Shown: positions 17,314-62,159 of the stretch, one piece after another | Position numbering within the stretch: position 1 is the stretch's first letter | How the letters are laid out: each line of letters starts with the position of its first letter | Assembly (NCBI GenBank): GCA_963735035.1 | Contig: CAVTJJ010000004.1 | Location: 288,001 to 352,000 of the forward strand | DNA: 64,000 nt | Origin: an uncultured candidate division Zixibacteria bacterium | GTDB lineage: Bacteria > Zixibacteria > MSB-5A5 > GN15 > FEB-12 | Reading direction: 5' to 3' | Notes under the pieces: generated by a model | Told to the model about the DNA's origin: nothing | Seen by the model: only the letters and a program-made list of their open reading frames with translations | Database searches by the model: none | Translations under genes and position numbers: made by a program

Positions 17314-17495
17314 GGGCCTGTTGAAAAAGCCCGTCCAATCGTCATTGCGAGCGGAGGTGGCCCGCCGCCAGGCGGGACAGCGTAGCGCGGCAATCTCAAG
17401 CTCGTTTTGACAGCGTTATTTGAGATCGCCACGTCTCGCCTGCGAAGCGCAGTCGAGACTCGCGATGACGGGGAAGGGACTTTTTCGACACTCCC
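17314..17495 (+). mobile_element. MITE-like element: RPE-like core inside terminal inverted repeats
   Basis: gggcctgttgaaaaag ... ctttttcgacactccc around the 17341-17469 palindromic core. Confidence 0.75.
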
Positions 17496-17571: not shown

Positions 17572-18477
17572 ATGAGAATCCTGGTCTCCGGTTCGCACGG
17601 ACTTATCGGACGCGCGGTTGTCACCGCCCTGACACAAGCCGGGCATGATACAATCGCCCTTACCCGCGCGAAAGAACCTGCTTCGATAAGTAGCCCTGTG
17701 TGGGAGCCAATCCGTAACAAATCCTGGGAGAGCGACATCGGTACGATCGACGCCGTTGTGCATCTGGCCGGTGAAAATCTGGGGGCGCGACGGTGGACGC
17801 CTGATGTGAAGCGCCGACTTCGCGACAGTCGCACAGTAGGTACCGAACAGTTGTGCCGTCAGTTGGCGAGCTTGAAGTCACCGCCCAAAGTGCTCGTATC
17901 GGCATCGGCAGTGGGATATTACGGTGACCGTGGCGACATGGTGCTCACTGAAAGTGCGATGTGCGGCGAAGGCTTCTTGAGCGAATTGTGCCGTGAATGG
18001 GAGGCGGCCTGCAAACCGGCGGCGAAAGCGGGTATCAGGACTGTTTATCTCCGGTTTGGGATGGTGCTTTCGCGAAGCGGCGGGGCGCTGGCAAAATTGC
18101 TGCCCATGTTCAAAATTGGTCTCGGTGGTCGGCTCGGTTCGGGTCGGCAATGGATGAGTTGGATCGCGATCGATGACTTAGTGGCAGCGGTGTTATTCAG
18201 TGTCACTGACTCACGACTGCAGGGCCCGGTCAATATTGTTTCGCCTAACCCTGTGACCAATCGAGAGTTCACGAGCACGATGGGGAAGATTCTGCGGCGG
18301 CCCACGATATTCTCGGCGCCGGCGTGGGCCCTTCGTATCGGCCTGGGGGAGATGGCGGACGAAATGCTTTTGGCGTCGACCCGCGTGGAACCGAAGAAGC
18401 TACTTGAGAATGGTTACCAGTTCAGATACCCCGATTTGGAATCGGCCCTTCGGCACGTGATTATGAACGACAATTAA
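17572..18477 (+). CDS. TIGR01777/YfcH family NAD-dependent epimerase-like protein
   Basis: SGSHGLIG, HLAGE, SASAVGYYG, LGGRLGSGRQWMSWI. Confidence 0.92.
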   Translation: MRILVSGSHGLIGRAVVTALTQAGHDTIALTRAKEPASISSPVWEPIRNKSWESDIGTIDAVVHLAGENLGARRWTPDVKRRLRDSRTVGTEQLCRQLASLKSPPKVLVSASAVGYYGDRGDMVLTESAMCGEGFLSELCREWEAACKPAAKAGIRTVYLRFGMVLSRSGGALAKLLPMFKIGLGGRLGSGRQWMSWIAIDDLVAAVLFSVTDSRLQGPVNIVSPNPVTNREFTSTMGKILRRPTIFSAPAWALRIGLGEMADEMLLASTRVEPKKLLENGYQFRYPDLESALRHVIMNDN

Positions 18478-18608
18478 CTTGATTCCGATGGGAATCGGTG
18501 CGTATAAGTAGGATATATGGATTGCGATGATGGTAGGAGTCGGTATAGGTATGCCGCCCGCCTGCCGATCTAATATGGATAGTATATGCTTTGTTCACGG
18601 AGGATAAT

Positions 18609-18809
18609 ATGAGAGAGATGATCGGTGAAGCCGCCGGCAAAGTCTGGCGGACATTAAGTCAGCACAAGGAAATCAGCCTTTCGCAGATTCCGAAACTGGT
18701 CGGCGAGAAGGACACAGTGGTCTATCAGGCGGTCGGATGGCTGGCCTGCGAAAACAAGATTCAGTATCGCAACGACCGCAACCGGACGCTGGTCTCGTTG
18801 CGTTCGTAG
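18609..18809 (+). CDS. Small winged-helix protein (DUF2582-like)
   Basis: IGEAAGKVWRTL...AVGWLACENKI; GGAGG RBS at 18599. Confidence 0.85.
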   Translation: MREMIGEAAGKVWRTLSQHKEISLSQIPKLVGEKDTVVYQAVGWLACENKIQYRNDRNRTLVSLRS

Positions 18810-18996
18810 ACGCGCGGTCAGTGTGACGTCGGGCATCTCTGCCCGACGGTAACTTCTTCGATTCAATCAAATCAGGCCCCTCGACCCGGCAGGTCGGGGT
18901 GTGTGCGGCTGGCATATCTGTCATGTTGTAGAATATCTGTCGACATAGGCTCCCGCCCCTAGACGACCGCCCCTCTGAAGCTTCCACTGTTCTGGC

Positions 18997-19329
18997 TTAG
19001 TCCTTAAACAGATCGTCGAAATTCTTCCGGCGCGATTCCTTGTTGTCTGTCCGCTGCCTGATGCCGCCCGCGCCCTTGACCACCTCGCGCACCTGGAAGA
19101 AATCACAGAAATTGGCTTTGTTCTTGTTCAGCACCGGATGATCGACATTCTCGCGACACTGGTGCCGTCGCGTGGGATCAAAATGCCGACAGCCGCGGCA
19201 GGTGCGAAGATCAGCGAGGCAGTTCTGGCACTGATCGTGCCGCGTGACACTGCCCTTGGAGCCGGACGGTCGCCCGCAACTCCAGCAGAGCAGACCTTCT
19301 TCTTTCAGTTCGCCGCCGTGTAAAGCCAT
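18997..19329 (-). CDS. Cys-rich, probably zinc-binding hypothetical protein
   Basis: CWSC, CQNC, CRGC, C, NFCDFF; C-terminal FDDLFK. Confidence 0.7.
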   Translation of the reverse strand: MALHGGELKEEGLLCWSCGRPSGSKGSVTRHDQCQNCLADLRTCRGCRHFDPTRRHQCRENVDHPVLNKNKANFCDFFQVREVVKGAGGIRQRTDNKESRRKNFDDLFKD

Positions 19330-19427: not shown

Positions 19428-19609
19428 GGGAGTGTTGAAAAAGTCTCTTCCCCGTCATCGCGAGTCTCGACCGCGCTTCGCGGGCGAGATGTGGCGATCT
19501 CAAATGACACTGACACAACGAGCTTGAGATTGCCACGCTAAGCTGACCCGCCTCACGGCGTGCCATCTCCGCTCGCAATGACGATTAGACAGCCTTTTTC
19601 AAGACTCCC
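19428..19609 (-). mobile_element. MITE-like element (reverse copy)
   Basis: gggagtgttgaaaaag ... ctttttcaagactccc around a reverse RPE-like core. Confidence 0.8.
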
Positions 19610-25074: not shown

Positions 25075-25256
25075 CTCAAAGGACCTCAATAGCTTACTGT
25101 TGCGGGCGCGAATCTGAAATATTTCGCCGCCCAAGCCGTCCACGTTGCCGGCCAGCTCGCTGGAAAATAAGGAACGGGCAGGAAAAATCAAGCGAATCCG
25201 CGCTATCAGACGCGATTCCGCACCAACATCTGTCTATGGGGAAGATCCGCTTAATA

Positions 25257-25385
25257 GTCATTGCGAGCGGAGATGGCTCGCCGTCAGGCGTGGCATCGTA
25301 GCGCGGCAATCTCAATGTTGTTGCACCAGTATCATTTGAGATCGCCACGTCTCGCCCGCGAAGCGCGGCCGAGACTCGCGATGAC
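25257..25385 (+). repeat. RPE-like palindromic element
   Basis: Same core as 483-601 and 17341-17469. Confidence 0.9.
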
Positions 25386-25407
25386 GGGGAGTGAACTTCT
25401 ACAACAA

Positions 25408-26073
25408 TTAGTCCGGTGGTCGTATGGTAGCGATAGCGGCCAACAACTGTTCTTTGTTGGCGATAGATATCTTGCGTCCTCTGATTGGTAGATCAGGCAG
25501 ATCTCTGGCGTAGCGCCTTAGTTTGACCACTGGCATCGCTGCAAGCTGTTCCCACGTTGGCTGTTCGGAAGAGATCTCTGAAGTGTGGGCAGGAATGCGG
25601 ACGGGTGGAGTGGCGATTCGAATTGGCGCCTCTACTATCGCGGGTTCTTTGTGACTAACGGGAGCCGGTGCTTTTGGTTTGGTAGGCTTTCTGGCAGGCT
25701 TGGTTGGCGATGCGACACGAACCGCGGCGGCCTTCTCGGGAGCCGGCTTCTTGAGAATCGGGGCGGAAGACTCGTCGGGACTGTAGCGGTCGACAAAACG
25801 CGGATAAGGCATGATCGCACTGACTTCGTCGTCGGATTTTGGGATCACGTGCATCGACACCAGTTCGCCGGCGACATAGGCAGCGCGTGCTCCAGCTTCA
25901 ACTGCTCCCTGGACCGCCGACCATTCACCCTCAATCTTGACCGTCATGCGGCCGGACGCTCCCTGCTCCGCCGAGACAATCACTACCTCACCCAAATCCG
26001 ATGCGGCGCGGGTCGCCTTGATGGCGCCTTCAATGCCGCTTGTTTCTACTAGTCCTAACGCTGGTCGTGGCAT
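25408..26073 (-). CDS. Bacterial microcompartment shell (BMC-H) protein with Pro/Ala/Lys linker and C-terminal helical extension
   Basis: ALGLVET.G, VKIEGEWSAVQGAVEAG, ELVSMHVIP; C-terminal MPVVKLRRYAR..ISIANKEQLL; start reassigned to ATG 26073. Confidence 0.85.
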   Translation of the reverse strand: MPRPALGLVETSGIEGAIKATRAASDLGEVVIVSAEQGASGRMTVKIEGEWSAVQGAVEAGARAAYVAGELVSMHVIPKSDDEVSAIMPYPRFVDRYSPDESSAPILKKPAPEKAAAVRVASPTKPARKPTKPKAPAPVSHKEPAIVEAPIRIATPPVRIPAHTSEISSEQPTWEQLAAMPVVKLRRYARDLPDLPIRGRKISIANKEQLLAAIATIRPPD

Positions 26074-26139
26074 GATCCTGAACCTACAAAATGCCGTGCT
26101 CCGATTCAACCAATAAAGTGATCGACAACTTGTGGAACA

Positions 26140-26242
26140 TAAATGAGCGTCGCCCGTGCATCCCCTCGAGCACGGGCGACTGGGCACCAAGAAAAAGAGG
26201 ACCTACCGAGCGCCTTGTCAGCGCCAGGAGTAAGAATGACGC
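26140..26242 (-). ncRNA. Candidate sigma54-dependent sRNA (~100 nt), or structured leader of the BMC gene
   Basis: Starts at the predicted +1 of the sigma54 promoter; CU-rich stretches; 11-bp GC hairpin 26149-26159/26170-26180. Confidence 0.45.
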
Positions 26243-26252
26243 AACGGTATTT

Positions 26253-26268
26253 AGCAAGGGCTGTGCCA
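26253..26268 (-). promoter_or_regulatory. Sigma54 (-24/-12) promoter
   Basis: TGGCAC-AGCCC-TTGCT on the minus strand, exact consensus spacing. Confidence 0.85.
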
Positions 26269-26299
26269 TCGAGTTGGTCGCATTACGTATGGTATTGTG

Positions 26300-26372
26300 T
26301 TTCAACAAGTTGGGGCGTGTGACGGGTAGTATAGGATGGGTGTGGCCGGTTTTGGTTCGTATGAACATACGA
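26300..26372. promoter_or_regulatory. IHF-like site (26300-26312) and palindromic UAS candidate (26357-26372)
   Basis: TTTCAACAAGTTG (one mismatch to WATCAANNNNTTR); TCGTATG-AA-CATACGA about 115-130 bp upstream of the predicted +1. Confidence 0.55.
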
Positions 26373-26383
26373 CCGACGGACAT

Positions 26384-26424
26384 AAAAAAGGCGGTAAGTG
26401 CTTGACCGGGGGACACTTACCGCC
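26384..26424 (-). terminator. Rho-independent terminator of the peptide/EBP operon
   Basis: 11-bp stem GGCGGTAAGTG/CACTTACCGCC followed by T6 on the minus strand. Confidence 0.85.
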
Positions 26425-26487
26425 ACCAAGGAGTGTTCTTTATAATCGTACGGTGTCACGAGACAATTCTTGAGAATCGTCCTGTGA

Positions 26488-28761
26488 CTAGTTGGGCATG
26501 CCGCCCTCCGCGCTGATCCCGTACCGTTTCAGCTTGGTTCTCACGGTCGCTTCATGGACGCCGAGGATGCGAGCCGCCTCGCTCTTGTTACCGCCGGCCG
26601 CCAGAAGCGCTTCGGTAATCAACTGCCGCTCGAATTGTTCGACACGTTCAAACAGGCCACCGGCATTGTCGGCCGCGTGGTCGGGAGCCAGAATCGACCG
26701 GGCTACTTCGTGCCACTGACCTTCAGCCACCGACTGTGACATTATTGAAAGCCGATTGACGACATTGTCTAGCTCGCGAACGTTGCCGGGCCAATCATGA
26801 CCAACGAACTGCTGCACCAATTCCGGCGCCGGTTTCTGTCCCGGCTTGAGCAGCCCACGATGAATCATGAAGTGCTCCAGCAGCAGAGGGATGTCTTCCT
26901 TGCGCGAGCGCAGTGACGGAAGATGCAGGGTGATCCCGCTCAGTCGGTAGTAGAGGTCCCGACGGAACGTGCCCTGTTCCACCATCGCTTCGAGATCGCG
27001 GTTGGTGGCCGCCACCACGATGATATCAATCTCGACCTGCTTGGTGCTTCCCAGCGGTGTTACGCGCCGTGATTCCAGTACGCCGAGCAGTTTCGCCTGG
27101 AGCGACAACGGCATTTCGCCGATCTCGTCGAACAAGAAAACGCCGCCGTTAGCCGATTCGAGCAGACCTTTCTTATTGTGGTCCGCTCCGGTGAAGGCGC
27201 CTCTGTGGTAACCGAACAGTTCCGATTCGAGCAGCGTCTCGGGCACCGAGGCGCAGTTGATCGCCACGTACGGTCCACTGGGTCGAACCTGCGAGTGATA
27301 GTACCTCGCCAGGTGATCCTTGCCGACACCCGTCTCGCCCGTAATAAGCACCGGCAAATCGGAGCGATTCAAGAGCGGCAGTTGCTTCTTGATTCGCTCG
27401 ATAATCGGAGACTGAGTGAGATATTCATGCTCGCCGGGGGTCGGAGAGGATTCGTGCGTCTGCTGTGTGACCTTAGCCAGACGGCCGATTTCGTTGGCCA
27501 GCCGGCTGACCTCGTCCTGTTTCGACTTGATCCGACACCGGGAGTAGAATTCTTCGGCCCTGAACAGATAAGTCAGGCGTTGTTGGTCGGAGAACGCTTC
27601 GGAGGCTCCGGCCGCAATCAACGCTTCGGCCTTGGCCCATCGAACACCCGATTCGGCCAGAATGTCGATAGCCTTCTGGAACAACTGACGGGCTTCAACC
27701 GCCTGTCGTTCACTCACCGGACGGGCTTCACCCATAGCCACCTGAGCCATGATCTTCTTGAGCGCGCCGAGTTCGAGTTTCTCGTCGGAGCGTTCCATGA
27801 TAACCGTGGCTCGCGCCGCCATCTTCTGAGCTTGACGATAGTCGCCGGTGCGCACGGCCAGTTCGGCCAGATGACGCATTACCCGGCCGGACAGCGAGGT
27901 GCCTGAACCAAGAAGTTCCGCTTTCTCGAAAGCGCGTCTCAGGGTCAGGGCCGACTGCGCGAAGTCGGCAATGCGATAGTTCAGCTCACCCAGATAAGTC
28001 AGGTAACTGACTTCATCACGCGGCGAGTTGACCACCGTGAGCAAAACGCCGGCCTGGTTGAATTCCGCCTCGGCCTTGTCATACTCTGCCTGCTGCAGGT
28101 AGACGTATCCGAGAGATAGATGGGCGCGAAGCGTATTGAGATCGTCACCCAGTTCACCGGACATCTGGATATTGATCCGGAGATGTTTCTCCGCTTCAAT
28201 GAAATCACCCATGAACATATATATGCGGCCGATGTTGCCCATCATGAAAGCCAGCTTGCGCGGGTTATCGAGCCGTCGGGCGATTTCGACCGCATCCATC
28301 AGCACCGCCAGAGCGTTACGGTAGTCGGTCTGTCGGAGATACAGTCCGGCCAGACGATTCAGTGCCCGGCTCTGACCTTCGGGACAATCATATCTTCTGA
28401 AAATCGATTCCGCGTCGCGGTACGCCTTCTGTGCTTCAACAAGTTCACCCCTGTCTCGCAGGATACCTCCCAGGGTAACGAAGACCTCGGCCAGCATCAA
28501 CGAGTCGCCGGCGCGGGTAACGATAGCCTGGGCAGTCCGTGCCACCTTCAAGGCAGCTGTCAGATTGGTGAGGGAAGCATAAGCCCGAGCCGCCAGATGC
28601 AGGATTTCTCCTACTTCGGCTGCTCCGGCTTCAGTGTCTATCTGGCTCTGTTGAGCCTCATAGCACTGCACGGCGCCGACAAAGTCTTGCCTGGCCAGCA
28701 TCGCCCGCATGTGGGCGGCCGCCGAAACGCAGAACGTCTTGTCTACGTCGTGTTGGCTCAT
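26488..28761 (-). CDS. Sigma54-dependent enhancer-binding protein with N-terminal TPR array and Fis-type HTH
   Basis: About 430 aa of TPR-like helices, GETGVGKD, ESELFG..GAFTGA, FDEIGE, FRRDLYYRL, WPGNVREL, GNKSEAARILG. Confidence 0.95.
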   Translation of the reverse strand: MSQHDVDKTFCVSAAAHMRAMLARQDFVGAVQCYEAQQSQIDTEAGAAEVGEILHLAARAYASLTNLTAALKVARTAQAIVTRAGDSLMLAEVFVTLGGILRDRGELVEAQKAYRDAESIFRRYDCPEGQSRALNRLAGLYLRQTDYRNALAVLMDAVEIARRLDNPRKLAFMMGNIGRIYMFMGDFIEAEKHLRINIQMSGELGDDLNTLRAHLSLGYVYLQQAEYDKAEAEFNQAGVLLTVVNSPRDEVSYLTYLGELNYRIADFAQSALTLRRAFEKAELLGSGTSLSGRVMRHLAELAVRTGDYRQAQKMAARATVIMERSDEKLELGALKKIMAQVAMGEARPVSERQAVEARQLFQKAIDILAESGVRWAKAEALIAAGASEAFSDQQRLTYLFRAEEFYSRCRIKSKQDEVSRLANEIGRLAKVTQQTHESSPTPGEHEYLTQSPIIERIKKQLPLLNRSDLPVLITGETGVGKDHLARYYHSQVRPSGPYVAINCASVPETLLESELFGYHRGAFTGADHNKKGLLESANGGVFLFDEIGEMPLSLQAKLLGVLESRRVTPLGSTKQVEIDIIVVAATNRDLEAMVEQGTFRRDLYYRLSGITLHLPSLRSRKEDIPLLLEHFMIHRGLLKPGQKPAPELVQQFVGHDWPGNVRELDNVVNRLSIMSQSVAEGQWHEVARSILAPDHAADNAGGLFERVEQFERQLITEALLAAGGNKSEAARILGVHEATVRTKLKRYGISAEGGMPN

Positions 28762-29123
28762 TACTTCTCCCTTCTAAGAGGCAGGAAATGCTTCCGGCTC
28801 GAGATAACCGCGGATGAACTCTTGTCCGCCACGTCGGTATTTGACAAAGTCGCCGATTGAGGTGTGCGCGCCGGACTGATCAAAGTGGCGATAAGCACAT
28901 CAATTATTGGGATTCCGGTCAGAACCGTGACTCTGAAAGTCTTGGTGCCGCCGCCGCCGATGACTTCGTCATCGCCCCAGGGATGATCGCCATCCACGAC
29001 CGTACCGCCGCCGGTGCCGGGTTGGTCTAAGCCCTCGCCCCGCATGATGCCTGCATTGAGAGGCATAGCTGAGGCGACTACTAGTACCAGTATCAGGACC
29101 AGTACCGAGTAAACGTGTTTCAT
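28761..29123 (-). CDS. Small secreted protein with DHPWGDDE motif (candidate signalling-peptide precursor)
   Basis: AAGGAG RBS, Sec signal peptide, Gly-flanked DHPWGDDE, TAATG overlap with the EBP start. Confidence 0.75.
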   Translation of the reverse strand: MKHVYSVLVLILVLVVASAMPLNAGIMRGEGLDQPGTGGGTVVDGDHPWGDDEVIGGGGTKTFRVTVLTGIPIIDVLIATLISPARTPQSATLSNTDVADKSSSAVISSRKHFLPLRREK

Positions 29124-29241
29124 GACACACTCCTTGGTATGAGTAGTTAGTGTAACTTTTTCTTCAAGTCGTCCGCCGAATGCAGTCAGTCACTGGTGGC
29201 GGCCGTGAGGGGATGGGTAAAACGTCATTCCGGTCACACTT

Positions 29242-29270
29242 AGGATAGCTTATTGCAAAGCGCTTGTCAA
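29242..29270 (-). promoter_or_regulatory. Sigma70 promoter for the peptide/EBP operon
   Basis: TTGACA-N17-TATCCT on the minus strand. Confidence 0.7.
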
Positions 29271-29425
29271 TCAAAATGTTAAGGCTCGGAAGTTTGTTGT
29301 TAGCGGATGCCGTGCGCCGAAAATAGCAAGTCGCAGGATATCGGTGATCAGCGCTACGATTATATATCCTTAGAACAGATCAAAGTAGAACCCTTTGTAG
29401 ATGTTCAAAGAGTTCATACCGGAAA

Positions 29426-30367
29426 CTAAGAATGAATCAGAACCAATTGTACACAATCCGGTTCATCTTTGGGGTCACAATAGTGAAACTCGACCCTTAC
29501 AAATGCGCCGACAGGCCGGTTGTCCTTGATCTTGGGGCTAAACACCCAACTAGGTAAGACTGCCGTAAGGTTCTTCGCAAAACCGTACTCTCGTGGCTCT
29601 TCCTTGATGACAAGGTACTGGCAAGTATTGACTACCTCGTTTGAGTCGACAAAGAACCGCAACCGGGCGCTCTTACCATCCTTCATGACAAAGTCGAGGA
29701 AGAATCCGGACGAGTCACTCAGAGGCTGTGATACCGCGGCATATGGCCTCATGGCGCCCGTCGAATCGACGTACATAAGTACTTCGACGAATCCTCCCCG
29801 GTTATTCTCCAAGGCCATAAAGGGAATTTTCGGCGGAGTCTTGGCAATGACCTCGATTTCCCGATTCACCACCCTCCTGGGCAAGGCGTCGACATCATCA
29901 GGCAAGAAGTCCGCAGTCTCGGGAGAGAACTCGCCAGACTCGGTATCGATATCGATTTGCGAATAGGACAAGTTCGTATCCACATTGATTCGGGCTTGTA
30001 AGTGAGGAATTACCTTTGACGGTTTCACTTTCGCCAGCATCGGAACATCGGGAATGATCGTGTACCCCCTGAATCCCGCGAAACCCTTATGCTGTTTCTC
30101 ATACGGATTAAGTCCGTTTGACTGACGGGCTGCTGTGAAAGCGCCATCGTCTGGCACAGCTACTTGGACAGTCAGGTCAGGTTGCGCACTCTTAGACACA
30201 ACCTCGTCGCGGAGTTGTAGCGGCCCAAGATACTTGATACCTACTGCAACCACGAGCGCAAGCCCGGTTACTATCCCCAGCGCCATAAGCATGTTCCGCT
30301 GGTATTTCTCCTTCAGTTCGAACCCAATGGCAGAAAACGAATTGTTCTGCAAGTCAAGTGTCTCCAA
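29426..30367 (-). CDS. TonB-like membrane-anchored protein
   Basis: GFELKEKYQRN plus TM helix; PPKIPFMALEN..GFVEVLMYVD..G; WVFSPKIKDNRPV resemble a TonB C-domain with an insertion. Confidence 0.65.
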   Translation of the reverse strand: METLDLQNNSFSAIGFELKEKYQRNMLMALGIVTGLALVVAVGIKYLGPLQLRDEVVSKSAQPDLTVQVAVPDDGAFTAARQSNGLNPYEKQHKGFAGFRGYTIIPDVPMLAKVKPSKVIPHLQARINVDTNLSYSQIDIDTESGEFSPETADFLPDDVDALPRRVVNREIEVIAKTPPKIPFMALENNRGGFVEVLMYVDSTGAMRPYAAVSQPLSDSSGFFLDFVMKDGKSARLRFFVDSNEVVNTCQYLVIKEEPREYGFAKNLTAVLPSWVFSPKIKDNRPVGAFVRVEFHYCDPKDEPDCVQLVLIHS

Positions 30368-30443: not shown

Positions 30444-30644
30444 CTACCACCATTCGTTGACGGTAATAGTCAAGAACTCTTGCATATCTACTGCTGCACA
30501 CCGTGTTCCCCACCAGGCGCAGTCAAACGCGGTGATGCATGTCCTGTAACGATCACAGGCCACCTGGAACGCACCTGCCGACGCCGGGATCATCGCGAGC
30601 ACGAACGCCAGCACCAGCGTCATCGCAACAATTTTTTTCAGCAC
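30444..30644 (-). CDS. Small secreted peptide with four Cys and WW motifs
   Basis: AAAGGAG RBS, signal peptide ending ASA/AGA, C-x5-C-x5-C-x6-C, hairpin downstream near 30385-30415. Confidence 0.7.
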   Translation of the reverse strand: MLKKIVAMTLVLAFVLAMIPASAGAFQVACDRYRTCITAFDCAWWGTRCAAVDMQEFLTITVNEWW

Positions 30645-32659: not shown

Positions 32660-32749
32660 GAGCTTGAGATTGCCGCGCTTCGCTGTCCCGCCTGACGGCG
32701 GGCCATCTCCGCTCGCAATGACGATTAGACAAGCTTCTTCAACATGCCC
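32660..32749 (-). repeat. Half copy of the RPE/MITE element
   Basis: gagattgccgcg...ctcgcaatgacgattagac...cttcttcaacatgccc. Confidence 0.8.
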
Positions 32750-37353: not shown

Positions 37354-37417
37354 GAATCGGTAATGTTCGACAGTCTATTATCTGATCGGCAGGGTTCCAC
37401 CCCTGCCGGGTCGATCT

Positions 37418-39316: not shown

Positions 39317-40189
39317 TTACGCCCAATACAGCACCGCGAGCACCGTCAGTATCCATAGCGAGACCGTTATCAAAATCGGCTTGTCCGTTATCAATACTTG
39401 TGTCGGTGAACCGCCCTGCTCTTCTTTGTGGATCAGATACAGATACCGAAAGACACCGTACACCACGAACGGAATCGTCAGGAACAGATTCTCCGTCCCC
39501 AGCTTTTCCGACACCTCGGGCGAAAATGAATACAGCATGTACATCACCACCACCGAGGCGGTCGTCACGCCAATCAACTGATCGAGCAGATACGCCGAGT
39601 ACCGGCTCAAGATGCGACGGTGCGTGATGGCGTCGGCATCCAAGAAGACCAGTTCATGCCGCCGCTTGCCGAATGAAAGAAACAACGCCAGCAGGAGCGT
39701 GTTGATGAGCATCCACTTCGACGCGGGTACGTTGATCGCCAGCGCACCGGCGTAGGCGCGAAGCACAAAACTCAGGCCGACTGTCATGGCGTCGACGATA
39801 ACAATATTCTTAAGTACCGCTGAATAGAGCAGGTTGAGCGCGACGAATGCGACCGCGGCGACAAAGAATTTCCAGTTCATCCACCAGGCGCCGGCCAGTC
39901 CGACCAGGGCCAGGATCGCTCCAAAAACAATCGCTTGGGCCACACCTAAGCGACCTGAGGCTATTGGTCGGTCCTTCTTGAGCGGGTGGTTCCGGTCTTT
40001 GTCTCGGTCGAAGATGTCGTTGAAGGTGTAGACCGCCGACGAGAGCAGGCAGAACAGCGCGGCCGCCGCCAGGGCGAGTTCGAAATAACCCGGGCGCGTC
40101 GCGTCCCCGGCGAAAACAAGAGCCGCCATGACAACCGAGTTCTTCAGCCATTGTCCGGGGCGGGCAATTTTGATCAGGTCACGCCACAT
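39317..40189 (-). CDS. UbiA-family decaprenyl-phosphate phosphoribosyltransferase-like protein
   Basis: RPGQWLKN, NDIFDRDKDRNHPLKKDRPIASG, GKRRHE. Confidence 0.9.
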   Translation of the reverse strand: MWRDLIKIARPGQWLKNSVVMAALVFAGDATRPGYFELALAAAALFCLLSSAVYTFNDIFDRDKDRNHPLKKDRPIASGRLGVAQAIVFGAILALVGLAGAWWMNWKFFVAAVAFVALNLLYSAVLKNIVIVDAMTVGLSFVLRAYAGALAINVPASKWMLINTLLLALFLSFGKRRHELVFLDADAITHRRILSRYSAYLLDQLIGVTTASVVVMYMLYSFSPEVSEKLGTENLFLTIPFVVYGVFRYLYLIHKEEQGGSPTQVLITDKPILITVSLWILTVLAVLYWA

Positions 40190-40311: not shown

Positions 40312-40598
40312 TCGGTCAAGACGGCAGGCACGGAGGCCTGCCGATCAAGAATGGGGCCTGCTTATTAAGAAGAAGGATTTCCATCACCTGTGATCGGCAG
40401 GGTTCCAACCCTGCCGGACCGTCCTTCGCGGCAGGCGCAGAGGCCCACTAACTTAATCGGCAGGGTTCCAGCCCTGTCGGAACGTCCTTCGCGGCAGGCA
40501 CGGAGGCCTGCCGATCAAGAATGGGCCTTCCGATCAAGAATGGGGCCTGCCGATCAAGAATGGGGCCTGCCGATCAAGAATGGGCCTTCCGATCAAGA
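40312..40598. repeat. REP-like cluster ending in a five-copy 19-20-bp tandem repeat (40505-40598)
   Basis: GGCCT(G/T)CCGATCAAGAATG(G) five times plus a copy near 40335; gatcggcagggttcca..cctgccgg also near 37384 and 52272. Confidence 0.85.
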
Positions 40599-49980: not shown

Positions 49981-50116
49981 TTTCGGGACCCGCCGTCACA
50001 CACCAAAGTTTTTGGGTGACTGGCATCTGATAATCCTGTTGAATTTGGGAGGTTGGGCGGGTTGGCAGGTCGAAACCCGTGTGGTTTCGACATTATGCCT
50101 TTTCACCCCACTCAAC

Positions 50117-50297
50117 CGGAGTGTTGAAAATGTATATGTACTCGTCATTGCGAGCGAAGATGGCCCGCCGTCAGGCGGGACATCGTAGCGCGGCAATCTC
50201 AAGATTGTTGCGGCAGTGCTATTTGAGATCGCCACGTCTCGCCCACGAGGCGCGGTCGAGACTCGCGATGACAGCGAAAGCACTTTTGCAACATCCC
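50117..50297 (+). mobile_element. MITE-like element (RPE core with terminal inverted repeats)
   Basis: ggagtgttgaaaa ... cttttgcaacatccc around the 50144-50272 core. Confidence 0.75.
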
Positions 50298-50331
50298 CCG
50301 ACGGGTGGGAATTTGTACGTGTGAGGAAGAT

Positions 50332-50879: not shown

Positions 50880-51070
50880 TTTCTGTTCAGGCATAGGACT
50901 CGAACCAGTCTGCTATTCGTGGTCGCTGACTGGCAGCGCCACAGGCAATGTATCCGCTCGTGACCTGGCGAGGCAGCAGACTTGCGGACGTGGTCTCGGT
51001 TGGCCCGAGCCACAGCGGGTGGGTCGCTGTTCTCGCGTTAGCTTGGTACGGTTCCGACTCCTTGGTTATC
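50880..51070 (-). ncRNA. Candidate IS110 bridge/seek RNA
   Basis: Stem-internal loop-stem at 50968-51036 whose loop strands match both flanks of the insertion site. Confidence 0.7.
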
Positions 51071-52129
51071 TTAGGCGGCCGCACACGGCTCATAGGCAAC
51101 GTTATCAAGCAGAACCCGCCTGACTGCCAAGACCAGTCGTCGAGCTACCGCCACTATGGCTCGTTTGCCGCCGGCACGTTGCTTGATCCGGTTATAGACC
51201 AGTTGTAAGTGTGGGTCCTTCCGAACGGCAATCCAGGACGATTCCACTAACAAGCCCCGAAGATAGCTGTTGCCCGTGCCGGTAATCCGACCCATCCGGA
51301 CATGATCACCGCTGGAATACTGCGAAGGTGTCAGTCCCACATAAGCCGCCAATTGCTCAGCCCGTCCAAAACGACCGACCTCATGCAATTCCAACAGCAG
51401 AGCCATCGCCGTAATAACCCCTATGCCGGGAACGCTACTTAACAGCCGAACTCGATCACGATACTGTGGCAGTCGTGACAACTCCCGCAACAGTCGTGTC
51501 TGCAACGCCAGCTGGTTACTTACCAGATCGTACATCTCCAACAACCGCTCGTAGCTCGCCTGAGCCCAGACATCTGCCAAACACACCTGTCTCAGACGCT
51601 CTAATAACGGACCGGTCCACCGACCCGTCCCACTGCACACTGAAATACCATATAAGGCCAACTCCGATTTGATCCGACTCTGAAGACGTACCCGATCTTG
51701 AACCAATTGACGACGACGACGTAAGACCTCTCGGTGACCCCGCTGACTCTCATCCGGAACCCAGACCTTCTTCAACAACCCTAACGACAGCAACCAGGCC
51801 AGCTTCCGGCTATCCCGCTTGTCCGTCTTCACCCGATTACCGTAGGCCATCGGCACCAAGCTCGGCGGCGTTACTACGCACTGACCACCCCACGCTACCA
51901 CACAGTCGTGCAGCCAAAAACCAGAAAAACCCGCCTCGTAAACCACGGACACACACCCAGGATCATACCGATCCAGCAAACACCGCAAAGACGCCCAATC
52001 CCCGTTAATGCTGCCACAGAACAGTTCCACTTCTAACGTCCTCACCGTGACAAACCACTGACGCTTGTGAACATCCACGCCAACAAAAACAGCACTTCCC
52101 ACTTCCGCTCCAACTTCGTACCTTCTCAT
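51071..52129 (-). CDS. IS110-family transposase/recombinase
   Basis: VGVDVHK, YEAG, KTDKRDS (DEDD RuvC-like), VPGIG, YVGLTPSQYSSG, AIVAVARRL. Confidence 0.95.
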   Translation of the reverse strand: MRRYEVGAEVGSAVFVGVDVHKRQWFVTVRTLEVELFCGSINGDWASLRCLLDRYDPGCVSVVYEAGFSGFWLHDCVVAWGGQCVVTPPSLVPMAYGNRVKTDKRDSRKLAWLLSLGLLKKVWVPDESQRGHREVLRRRRQLVQDRVRLQSRIKSELALYGISVCSGTGRWTGPLLERLRQVCLADVWAQASYERLLEMYDLVSNQLALQTRLLRELSRLPQYRDRVRLLSSVPGIGVITAMALLLELHEVGRFGRAEQLAAYVGLTPSQYSSGDHVRMGRITGTGNSYLRGLLVESSWIAVRKDPHLQLVYNRIKQRAGGKRAIVAVARRLVLAVRRVLLDNVAYEPCAAA

Positions 52130-52479
52130 CTGAGCCTCCTGTTCTAAGGATCTATCGTTGTCTTCAGACCACGATACGATACCTTGTCCGAACAGAGGCT
52201 CAAATCACGAACAGTATCATAGTTACTTGCGGGTGGGATTGTGTCGTGCGCCGAGGGTGGATTCAATCTCTGATCGGCAGGGTTCCATCCCTGCCGGTTC
52301 TTGTATCGGCCGGTTCGGTGCCCCAGCGCTTGCGCTGGGCTTGAAGAACTCTTGACGCAATCTGATTGTTGGGCTATTATTCCATCATGCGAATTTGGTG
52401 TGCGGGGCTTTGTCACGAAGACCATAAACTCACCTGCAAGCAGGTGAGCGACTTGGACAAAGAATTGTGCGGTGGCAAT

Positions 52480-61796: not shown

Positions 61797-61946
61797 GCCG
61801 TTTCTAAATGTGATTGAGGCCTTGGGCTTGTGACATATTTTGTCTGCGACGGGTCTACACTATCGGAAGTTGCGTCAGGTCTTGCCCCCGACTTTGTCGG
61901 GGGTGTGACCTGACGCGTGACCGATGACGAACGAGTTCGTCACGCC

Positions 61947-62075
61947 GTCATTGCGAGCGAAGATGACCCGCCGTCAGGCGGGACGTCGTAGCGCGGCAAT
62001 CTCATAGTCGTTGGAGCGGCACCAATTGAGTTCGCCACGTCTCGCCCACGAAGCGCGGTCGAGACTCGCGATGAC
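61947..62075 (+). repeat. RPE-like palindromic element
   Basis: Same core as the other six copies. Confidence 0.9.
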
Positions 62076-62159
62076 AAACCCGGGACCTGTCACAACAAAT
62101 GGACATCGACCTTCCACCCAAACTGGTGGAATAGACTGCTATTTGCAAAGGAGATAGAC

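Follow-up and report, generated by a model that had tools for sequence, protein, structure and literature searches.

In a 64,000-nt stretch of DNA from an uncultured candidate division Zixibacteria bacterium (assembly GCA_963735035.1, contig CAVTJJ010000004.1, positions 288,001 to 352,000; "the window" refers to this whole stretch), a predicted two-gene operon on the minus strand carries in its 3' untranslated region (UTR) a 12-nt sequence that is the exact reverse complement of the ribosome-binding site (RBS) of its own first gene. The first cistron (28761..29123) encodes a 120-aa protein, here called the peptide, and the second (26488..28761) a 757-aa enhancer-binding protein (EBP) with TPR, sigma-54 AAA+ and Fis-type helix-turn-helix (HTH) parts. 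The stop codon of the peptide gene overlaps the ATG of the EBP gene in the sequence TAATG; a first-pass annotation of this DNA had spoken of the EBP as coupled to the peptide. Upstream lies a sigma-70-like promoter, TTGACA-17-TATCCT (29242..29270, minus strand), which is a consensus match only and agrees at 10 of 12 positions. From the position of this predicted promoter we assumed a transcription start near 29233-29235. The operon would then have a 5' UTR of ~110 nt (29124..29233) and a two-cistron mRNA of 2,852 nt (29233-26382). Between 25000 and 31000 the minus strand held just one other sigma-70-like match besides that at 29270-29242 (30749-30721), judged by a consensus that may not be that of the host phylum. 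The consensus scan found no sigma-70-like promoter on the minus strand within the 3' end of the EBP gene, which fits an operon with a single promoter, as in the CarZ system compared below.

The 120-aa protein has a signal-peptide-like N-terminus, a Gly-rich region with a conserved DHPWG motif, a hydrophobic segment and a basic tail; it matched no Pfam family at the cut-off and no NCBIfam family. Its family comprised five members including the query (among 234 candidates), with the four relatives at 39-44% BLAST identity. All four begin with MKHVYSVLVL, which supports ATG 29123 as the start codon. Such invariance of the first 10 residues across relatives is unusual for a signal peptide. For the EBP, 283 family members including the window's own were found at E ≤ 1e-5 among 8,000 scored candidates, some of them named Zixibacteria; the five closest share 77-83% identity over the TPR part, and one of these is from a Zixibacteria MAG. 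One relative of each protein comes from a contig of 2,790 nt, and this identical length hints at conservation of the gene pair. A TPR sensor beside a small exported protein recalls peptide-sensing regulators. The surroundings form an exosortase/exopolysaccharide locus with an EpsH/XrtA-like exosortase, EpsI, a chain-length determinant, an asparagine-synthase-type amidotransferase, acyl-CoA ligases and a 4'-phosphopantetheinyl transferase of the ACPS family. No Hfq or RNase E gene was found among 61 open reading frames (ORFs) of the window scanned against Pfam.

The minus strand reads ACCAAGGAGTGT at 29138-29127 and ACACTCCTTGGT at 26436-26425, confirming the exact 12-nt reverse complement that the first-pass annotation had placed at these positions. 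In the transcript, the 5' arm (patch g, ACCAAGGAGUGU, 29127..29138) covers the whole Shine-Dalgarno (SD) sequence, AAGGAG at 29134-29129, which lies 6 nt 5' of ATG 29123. The 3' arm (patch g', ACACUCCUUGGU, 26425..26436) contains the anti-SD CUCCUU and lies 2,690 nt (~2.69 kb) downstream. Each 12-mer word is single-copy in the window, and the match is perfect without extension, gaining 2 bp past a 1-nt bulge in the full-length fold (29125-26437, 29124-26438). AAGGAG itself is rare, with 15 occurrences in the window on both strands, 6 of them intergenic. Allowing up to two mismatches, the 12-mer matched three places: the two arms and 51055-51066. This third copy (10 nt, 51066-51057, minus strand; ACCAAGGAGT) lies 5 nt past the stop codon of an IS110-family transposase gene (51071-52129, minus strand) and was rejected as an RBS since no start codon follows it. 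We likewise rejected a plus-strand gene using the AAGGAG at 26428, for which there is no start codon at a usable distance; the sole plus-strand ORF at this motif has its GTG start inside the motif and runs antisense to the EBP gene.

The 3' UTR is 106 nt long (26487-26382) and consists, in order, of a hairpin, an A/U-rich linker, g' and an intrinsic terminator. The first hairpin is an imperfect 34-nt palindrome (26455..26488) that starts at the last base of the EBP stop codon and forms ~14 bp as RNA. It is followed by the single-stranded linker (26437..26454), which includes the complement of a further patch, b' (26450-26441). The terminator (26382..26424) has an 11-bp stem (26424-26414 with 26400-26390) and a 13-nt loop, followed by UUUUUUAU, with a U tract 3' of the stem. 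As the first-pass annotation had it, the 3' arm stands immediately before the terminator hairpin: g' ends at 26425 and the stem begins at 26424. The 3' UTR folds at -42.8 kcal/mol (z -5.5; 0/200 shuffles as stable), and g' is unpaired, falling in the only single-stranded stretch of the folded UTR (~30 unpaired nt of 106).

The g-g' duplex has a predicted energy of -19.8 kcal/mol, and opening the 3' site costs 2.1 kcal/mol. When the 5' and 3' UTRs were folded together, the free-energy difference (ddG) was -14.1, compared with -5.2 ± 2.2 for 150 shuffled 5' UTRs, none of which did as well. When the predicted mRNA was folded at full length (2,852 nt), the g-g' helix was part of the minimum free energy structure, with pair probabilities of 0.906-0.999. 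The first-pass annotation had proposed a comparison with other RBSs. Among 60 RBS regions, the operon's own was the best partner of the linker at -21.6, ahead of the RBS of gene 39317-40189 at -20.8, and the 59 regions besides the operon's own averaged -9.9 ± 3.1. Conversely, of 1,740 intergenic 28-nt windows, none was a better partner of the operon's RBS than the 3' site. A local SD-sequestering hairpin at the start codon was rejected, being no better than shuffles (-10.2 kcal/mol, z -0.3). On thermodynamic grounds, these models make it plausible that the 3' UTR masks the SD.

The two arms are not the only complementary sequences between the regions that flank the operon. We compared the upstream intergenic region (U, 29124-29425) with the downstream intergenic region (D, 26074-26487) and found five exact antisense runs of at least 9 nt (12, 10, 9, 9 and 9). 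The 12-mer of the first-pass annotation, which mentioned neither patch e nor the sigma-54 promoter described below, is the strongest of these antisense patches (U 29138-29127, ACCAAGGAGUGU; D 26436-26425). Patch b (UAUAAUCGUA, 29355..29364, minus strand) lies upstream of the predicted promoter and is complementary to 26450-26441 in the linker. The remaining three are in the predicted leader, which thus holds patches d, e, f and g. Patch e (CCGCCACCA, 29194..29202, minus strand) is complementary to 26428-26420 (UGGUGGCGG), a target that shares 4 nt with g' and extends over the base of the 5' arm of the terminator. Patch d (CAUCCCCUC, 29207..29215, minus strand) is complementary to 26167-26159, in a hairpin loop of the downstream leader. 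Patch f (AAGAAAAAG, 29156..29164, minus strand) is of low complexity and complementary to 26197-26189, where f' (CUUUUUCUU, 26189..26197, minus strand) lies in a leader driven by the sigma-54 promoter.

This number of runs exceeds expectation by several measures. Dinucleotide shuffles of U gave 0.30-0.36 runs of at least 9 nt, with four or more in 0/3,000 shuffles and five or more in 0/1,500. At successive thresholds, we observed 11 runs of at least 7 nt (shuffle mean 5.3, p = 0.02), 7 of at least 8 nt (1.3), 5 of at least 9 nt (0.30) and 2 of at least 10 nt (0.07, p = 0.005), and the counts at 8 and 9 nt were reached in 0/1,500 shuffles. Ninety other non-repeat intergenic pairs of the window predict 0.50 runs, giving Poisson probabilities of 1.7e-4 for five or more and of 1.8e-3 for at least four more given one. 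Three of the five runs lie together in a 31-nt segment of the 3' UTR (26450-26420). For the 3' UTR alone (taken as 108 nt), three runs compare with 0.11 expected, a count reached in 0/1,000 shuffles and in 0/1,248 natural 302-nt windows. Same-sense runs between U and D were at chance (one of at least 9 nt, two of at least 8 nt). An excess specific to one orientation is expected under selection on RNA pairing and not under shared DNA sites.

Directly downstream of the operon's terminator, and adjacent to the EBP gene, is a sigma-54 -24/-12 promoter (TGGCACAGCCCTTGCT, 26253..26268, minus strand). It is the sole perfect consensus match in the window, compared with 0.04 expected, and at least one such match arose in 4/100 shuffles. 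This promoter is likely the target of the adjacent TPR-containing EBP. The operon's 3' UTR region lies 120-230 bp upstream of it, and the 34-nt palindrome at 26455-26488 could, as DNA, serve as a binding site whose centre is ~230 bp before the start of the sigma-54 transcript. The first gene after the promoter (25408..26073, minus strand) encodes a protein with a single BMC (microcompartment shell) domain and a ~130-aa Pro/Ala/Lys-rich tail. No microcompartment enzyme genes stand near this BMC gene, which is inside the exopolysaccharide locus. The sigma-54-driven leader contains a hairpin (26149..26180, minus strand) with a perfect 11-bp stem and a loop that holds d' (GAGGGGAUG, 26167-26159). 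This hairpin, after which comes a U-rich stretch (GCUCAUUUAUGUU), is a possible attenuator, and the complement of its loop (GAGGGGAU) lies in a C-rich part of the operon leader.

Taken together, we give roughly even chances to the view that the 12-nt anti-SD of the 3' UTR functions as an RNA element in post-transcriptional negative feedback on the peptide-EBP operon. We read the relation as one between RNAs because g' is single-stranded, the helix dominates the full-mRNA fold and antisense runs are in excess. Under this proposal, RNA polymerase would complete the 2.85-kb transcript and so expose single-stranded ACACUCCUUGGU between the first hairpin and the terminator hairpin. This sequence would pair with ACCAAGGAGUGU at the RBS of the first gene, either in cis, as in icaR, or through a processed fragment of ~55-105 nt that retains the terminator, as in CarZ and OppZ. 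The 12-bp helix (-19.8 kcal/mol) would then block binding of the 30S subunit, and the lost translation of the peptide would lower EBP synthesis through the TAATG stop/start overlap. Feedback repression by 5'-3' pairing was also what the first-pass annotation had proposed. Its sequence facts stand and the masking is thermodynamically plausible, but the likeness it drew to hok and aapA does not hold, as discussed at the end.

Several observations weigh against feedback repression, and some of them would be expected if the arrangement were a coincidence, that is, an ordinary terminator and a sigma-54 control region in which neither the 12-mer nor the other antisense runs serve any function. The 5' site needs 7.8 kcal/mol to open. 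All folds here model equilibrium, on predicted transcript ends and without ribosomes or co-transcriptional kinetics. By raw duplex energy, the RBS of gene 39317-40189 is a close second. The patch analysis was post hoc, the region having been widened from the 3' UTR after the first result, with thresholds of 7 to 10 all given. The antisense patches are not colinear; patch b is 5' of the predicted promoter, and d and f have their partners in another, sigma-54-driven leader, outside the operon's own transcript and with no significant cofold (see below). A search of genome contigs with the TPR part of the EBP gave 70 pattern matches and three loci with weak TPR matches, and no orthologue; the three loci, from Poribacteria and Acidobacteriaceae, had 33-79% identity over 19-102 residues. 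As a sigma-54 upstream region, the 3' UTR sequence may also be partly constrained at the level of DNA. Furthermore, 12-mer inverted pairs within 5 kb are common, with 63 in the window (~25 independent) against 32.1 ± 7.5 in 20 shuffles, a surplus due to the dispersed repeat family described below. The g/g' match had a BLAST E of 0.66-0.91 against the window, and its Smith-Waterman score of 24 is inside the shuffle range (18.3 ± 2.1, maximum 27). We defined an event class in which one arm lies on an RBS core and the other is fully intergenic, at most 5 kb away. It occurred in 8% of 300 shuffled windows, or 3.3% when the partner was required to be downstream, so such cases will be met by chance many times in a large scan over many windows. 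The 12-mer match alone is not significant across such a scan. The third 10-nt copy at 51066-51057, which is not an RBS, also fits coincidence. If coincidence is the answer, a suggestively placed perfect 12-mer is to be expected in a few percent of 64-kb windows. Other results count against coincidence. Given the 12-mer, four more antisense runs of at least 9 nt have P ~3e-4 to 2e-3 while same-sense runs are at chance; the match falls within the ~30 unpaired nt of a 106-nt UTR and dominates the full-length mRNA ensemble; and the cofold beats 150/150 shuffles. The position of g' and the extra antisense runs between the same regions favour a real RNA-level relation, and we regard coincidence as rather unlikely.

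The same evidence bears on explanations that keep a function for the shared sequences and give the 12-mer another role. Masking of the SD could be incidental to a leader that mediates read-through and mRNA-mRNA contact. Positions 29202-29194 of the leader would invade the terminator stem at its base (26424-26420), favouring read-through into the BMC-domain gene, and the leader of the sigma-54-driven mRNA would be the pairing partner of 29215-29207 and 29164-29156. In keeping with this, the 9 nt of patch e extend to 15/17 with G-U pairs, overlapping g' and the terminator's 5' arm, and a run of at least 9 nt like patch e arose in 1.9% of 2,000 shuffles and 0.75% of 2,534 natural windows. Moreover, an 11-bp hairpin of the downstream leader carries d' in its loop, a read-through RNA would allow nesting of patches d, f and g, and an mRNA-mRNA interaction has been reported from Listeria (PMC8722363). 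However, cofolding the operon leader and the sigma-54-driven leader gave a non-significant result (ddG -9.9, z -0.9, 20/150 shuffles as good), and we rejected pairing between these leaders on that ground. Patch f is of low complexity, and in the full-length fold the terminator is intact and g-g' wins. We consider this logic improbable. Slimmer still is the chance of an RNA hub, in which the regulator mRNA would make contacts of three kinds through its leader: g would be masked by the operon's own 3' end, e would compete with the terminator stem and so set read-through into the downstream genes, and d and f would reach the sigma-54 leader. In such a hub, and with just as little probability, regulator synthesis, transcript termination and the fate of the target transcript would be coupled by direct RNA-RNA contacts at one locus; the sigma-54-dependent mRNA contacted by d and f would presumably be activated by the encoded EBP.

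The shared words might instead act as DNA, either as protein sites, for example in EBP autoregulation, or as inverted repeats for DNA inversion. Relative to the window's sole perfect sigma-54 promoter, g' stands ~160-170 bp before the -24 element, where activator sites are expected. A Fis-type HTH forms part of the EBP, and the same region as g' holds both the 34-bp palindrome (26455-26488) and the terminator palindrome. Yet the 12-mer is neither a dyad nor self-complementary, and it has no further copy (up to two mismatches) near the sigma-54 promoter; as a repeated operator it was rejected for want of extra copies. All shared runs of at least 10 nt and 5/6 runs of at least 9 nt are inverted even though both promoters are co-oriented, which is not expected for position-dependent sites. 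The five words are all different, with one copy each per region, unlike a repeated operator, and no recombinase gene is nearby. A DNA-level role therefore strikes us as very improbable. The lack of colinearity among the patches argues against an old inverted duplication, and an origin by inverted duplication or as the ends of a mobile element was rejected because local alignment yields the 12-mer only and the patches are not colinear.

Other features of the window include a dispersed repeat family of ~130-200 nt with at least seven copies, mostly intergenic and 75-92% identical to one another (482-603, 17321-17495, 19428-19602 (inverted), 25252-25406, 32660-32749 (inverted), 50105-50310 and 61946-62076). 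Its ends are inverted (CGTCATTGCGAGCG ... CTCGCGATGACG) and two inverted copies flank the ORFs at 17572-19329. The family has no Rfam match and looks, from its sequence, like a miniature inverted-repeat transposable element (MITE) or a repetitive extragenic palindromic (REP) element. A second short repeat of ~30 nt (92-94% identity) occurs in several intergenic regions (52269-52300, 37381-37412, 40388-40417 and 40456-40480). A 66-aa ORF (30444-30644, minus strand) has a strong AAGGAG SD, a signal-peptide-like N-terminus and four cysteines in the remainder, and had no family match.

Searches for described relatives of the element gave little. Rfam had no match at the gathering score in the whole window. 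When relaxed to E ≤ 1, it had none in 29050-29450 and a single weak match in 26000-26600, to SpR20, which scored 19 bits against a gathering score of 45 and lay on the sigma-54 promoter. Among the top literature matches listed, no paper linked Zixibacteria with sigma-54, exosortase or small RNAs, and none of the 10 listed of 146 used the name of the phylum at all. This literature result hints weakly that the system is undescribed so far. If feedback repression is correct, it would be the first candidate for autoregulation mediated by a 3' UTR in Zixibacteria, a phylum known from metagenomes alone. It would also be an unusually clean case, with a perfect 12-bp mask of the SD directly against a terminator, in an operon that encodes a sigma-54 activator within an exosortase/exopolysaccharide locus. 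The principle known from CarZ and icaR would then reach well past Proteobacteria and Firmicutes. A screen requiring genomes only suggests itself, in which the SD of each first gene is compared with the unpaired 3' UTR of the same operon and excess antisense runs between the flanking intergenic regions are counted.

How does the arrangement compare with known systems? In hok/Sok and aapA/IsoA, long-range 5'-3' pairing within one mRNA keeps a type I toxin mRNA translationally silent. The Zixibacteria operon shares the long-range 5'-3' pairing within one mRNA, but its first ORF encodes 120 aa with a signal-peptide-like N-terminus and a conserved Gly-rich domain and not a small hydrophobic toxin. 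Here the SD would be paired directly, whereas hok and aapA rely on a fold-back of the 5' end on the 3' end that is activated by 3' trimming, and no antisense RNA gene is evident at the operon, unlike at hok and aapA. The analogy offered in the first-pass annotation is therefore a poor one, because the mRNA that begins with the peptide gene is 2.85 kb long and encodes a regulator, and is not of the type I toxin kind.

Contact between the 5' and 3' UTRs of one bacterial mRNA is also found in hbs of Bacillus subtilis, where it reportedly couples mRNA stability with translation; the title and the start of the abstract of that report make no mention of SD masking (PMC5737220). The resemblance to icaR of Staphylococcus aureus is closer. 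There, an anti-SD in the icaR 3' UTR binds the SD at the other end of its own mRNA, and initiation is blocked (Ruiz de los Mozos et al. 2013, PMC3868564), as we predict for the peptide gene, whose SD is complementary to the anti-SD CUCCUU in the 106-nt 3' UTR. Both cases involve a regulator gene, an exopolysaccharide context and a 3' UTR of more than 100 nt. They differ in the motif, UCCCCUG in icaR and ACACUCCUUGGU here, and in the length of the mRNA, which is much greater here at 2.85 kb and two cistrons; cleavage by RNase III is a feature of icaR.

The other near relatives are CarZ and OppZ, autoregulatory small RNAs derived from 3' UTRs in Vibrio cholerae, as set out by Hoyos et al. (2020, PMC7398697). 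As in those systems, the element stands after the last stop codon and ahead of the operon's Rho-independent terminator, and it is complementary to a translation initiation region of its own operon, the target of CarZ being the 5' UTR of the first gene. A predicted single upstream promoter, possibly coupled translation of two ORFs and the proposed logic of negative feedback would be further likenesses. In silico, the Zixibacteria operon has an element of this kind at its 3' end, ending in the terminator, and a predicted pairing over its own SD. Processing by RNase E, a stable short RNA, Hfq binding and conservation are described for CarZ and OppZ, whereas the present element is known from sequence alone. 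The operons of CarZ and OppZ encode enzymes or transporters, in contrast to a regulator with a small secreted or membrane protein, and the present case is further set apart by its uncultured Zixibacteria host and by a perfect 12-mer pairing centred on the SD. The kind of mechanism proposed is thus already known from Vibrio and Staphylococcus, and the close precedents are CarZ/OppZ and icaR, to judge by these likenesses, and not hok and aapA.

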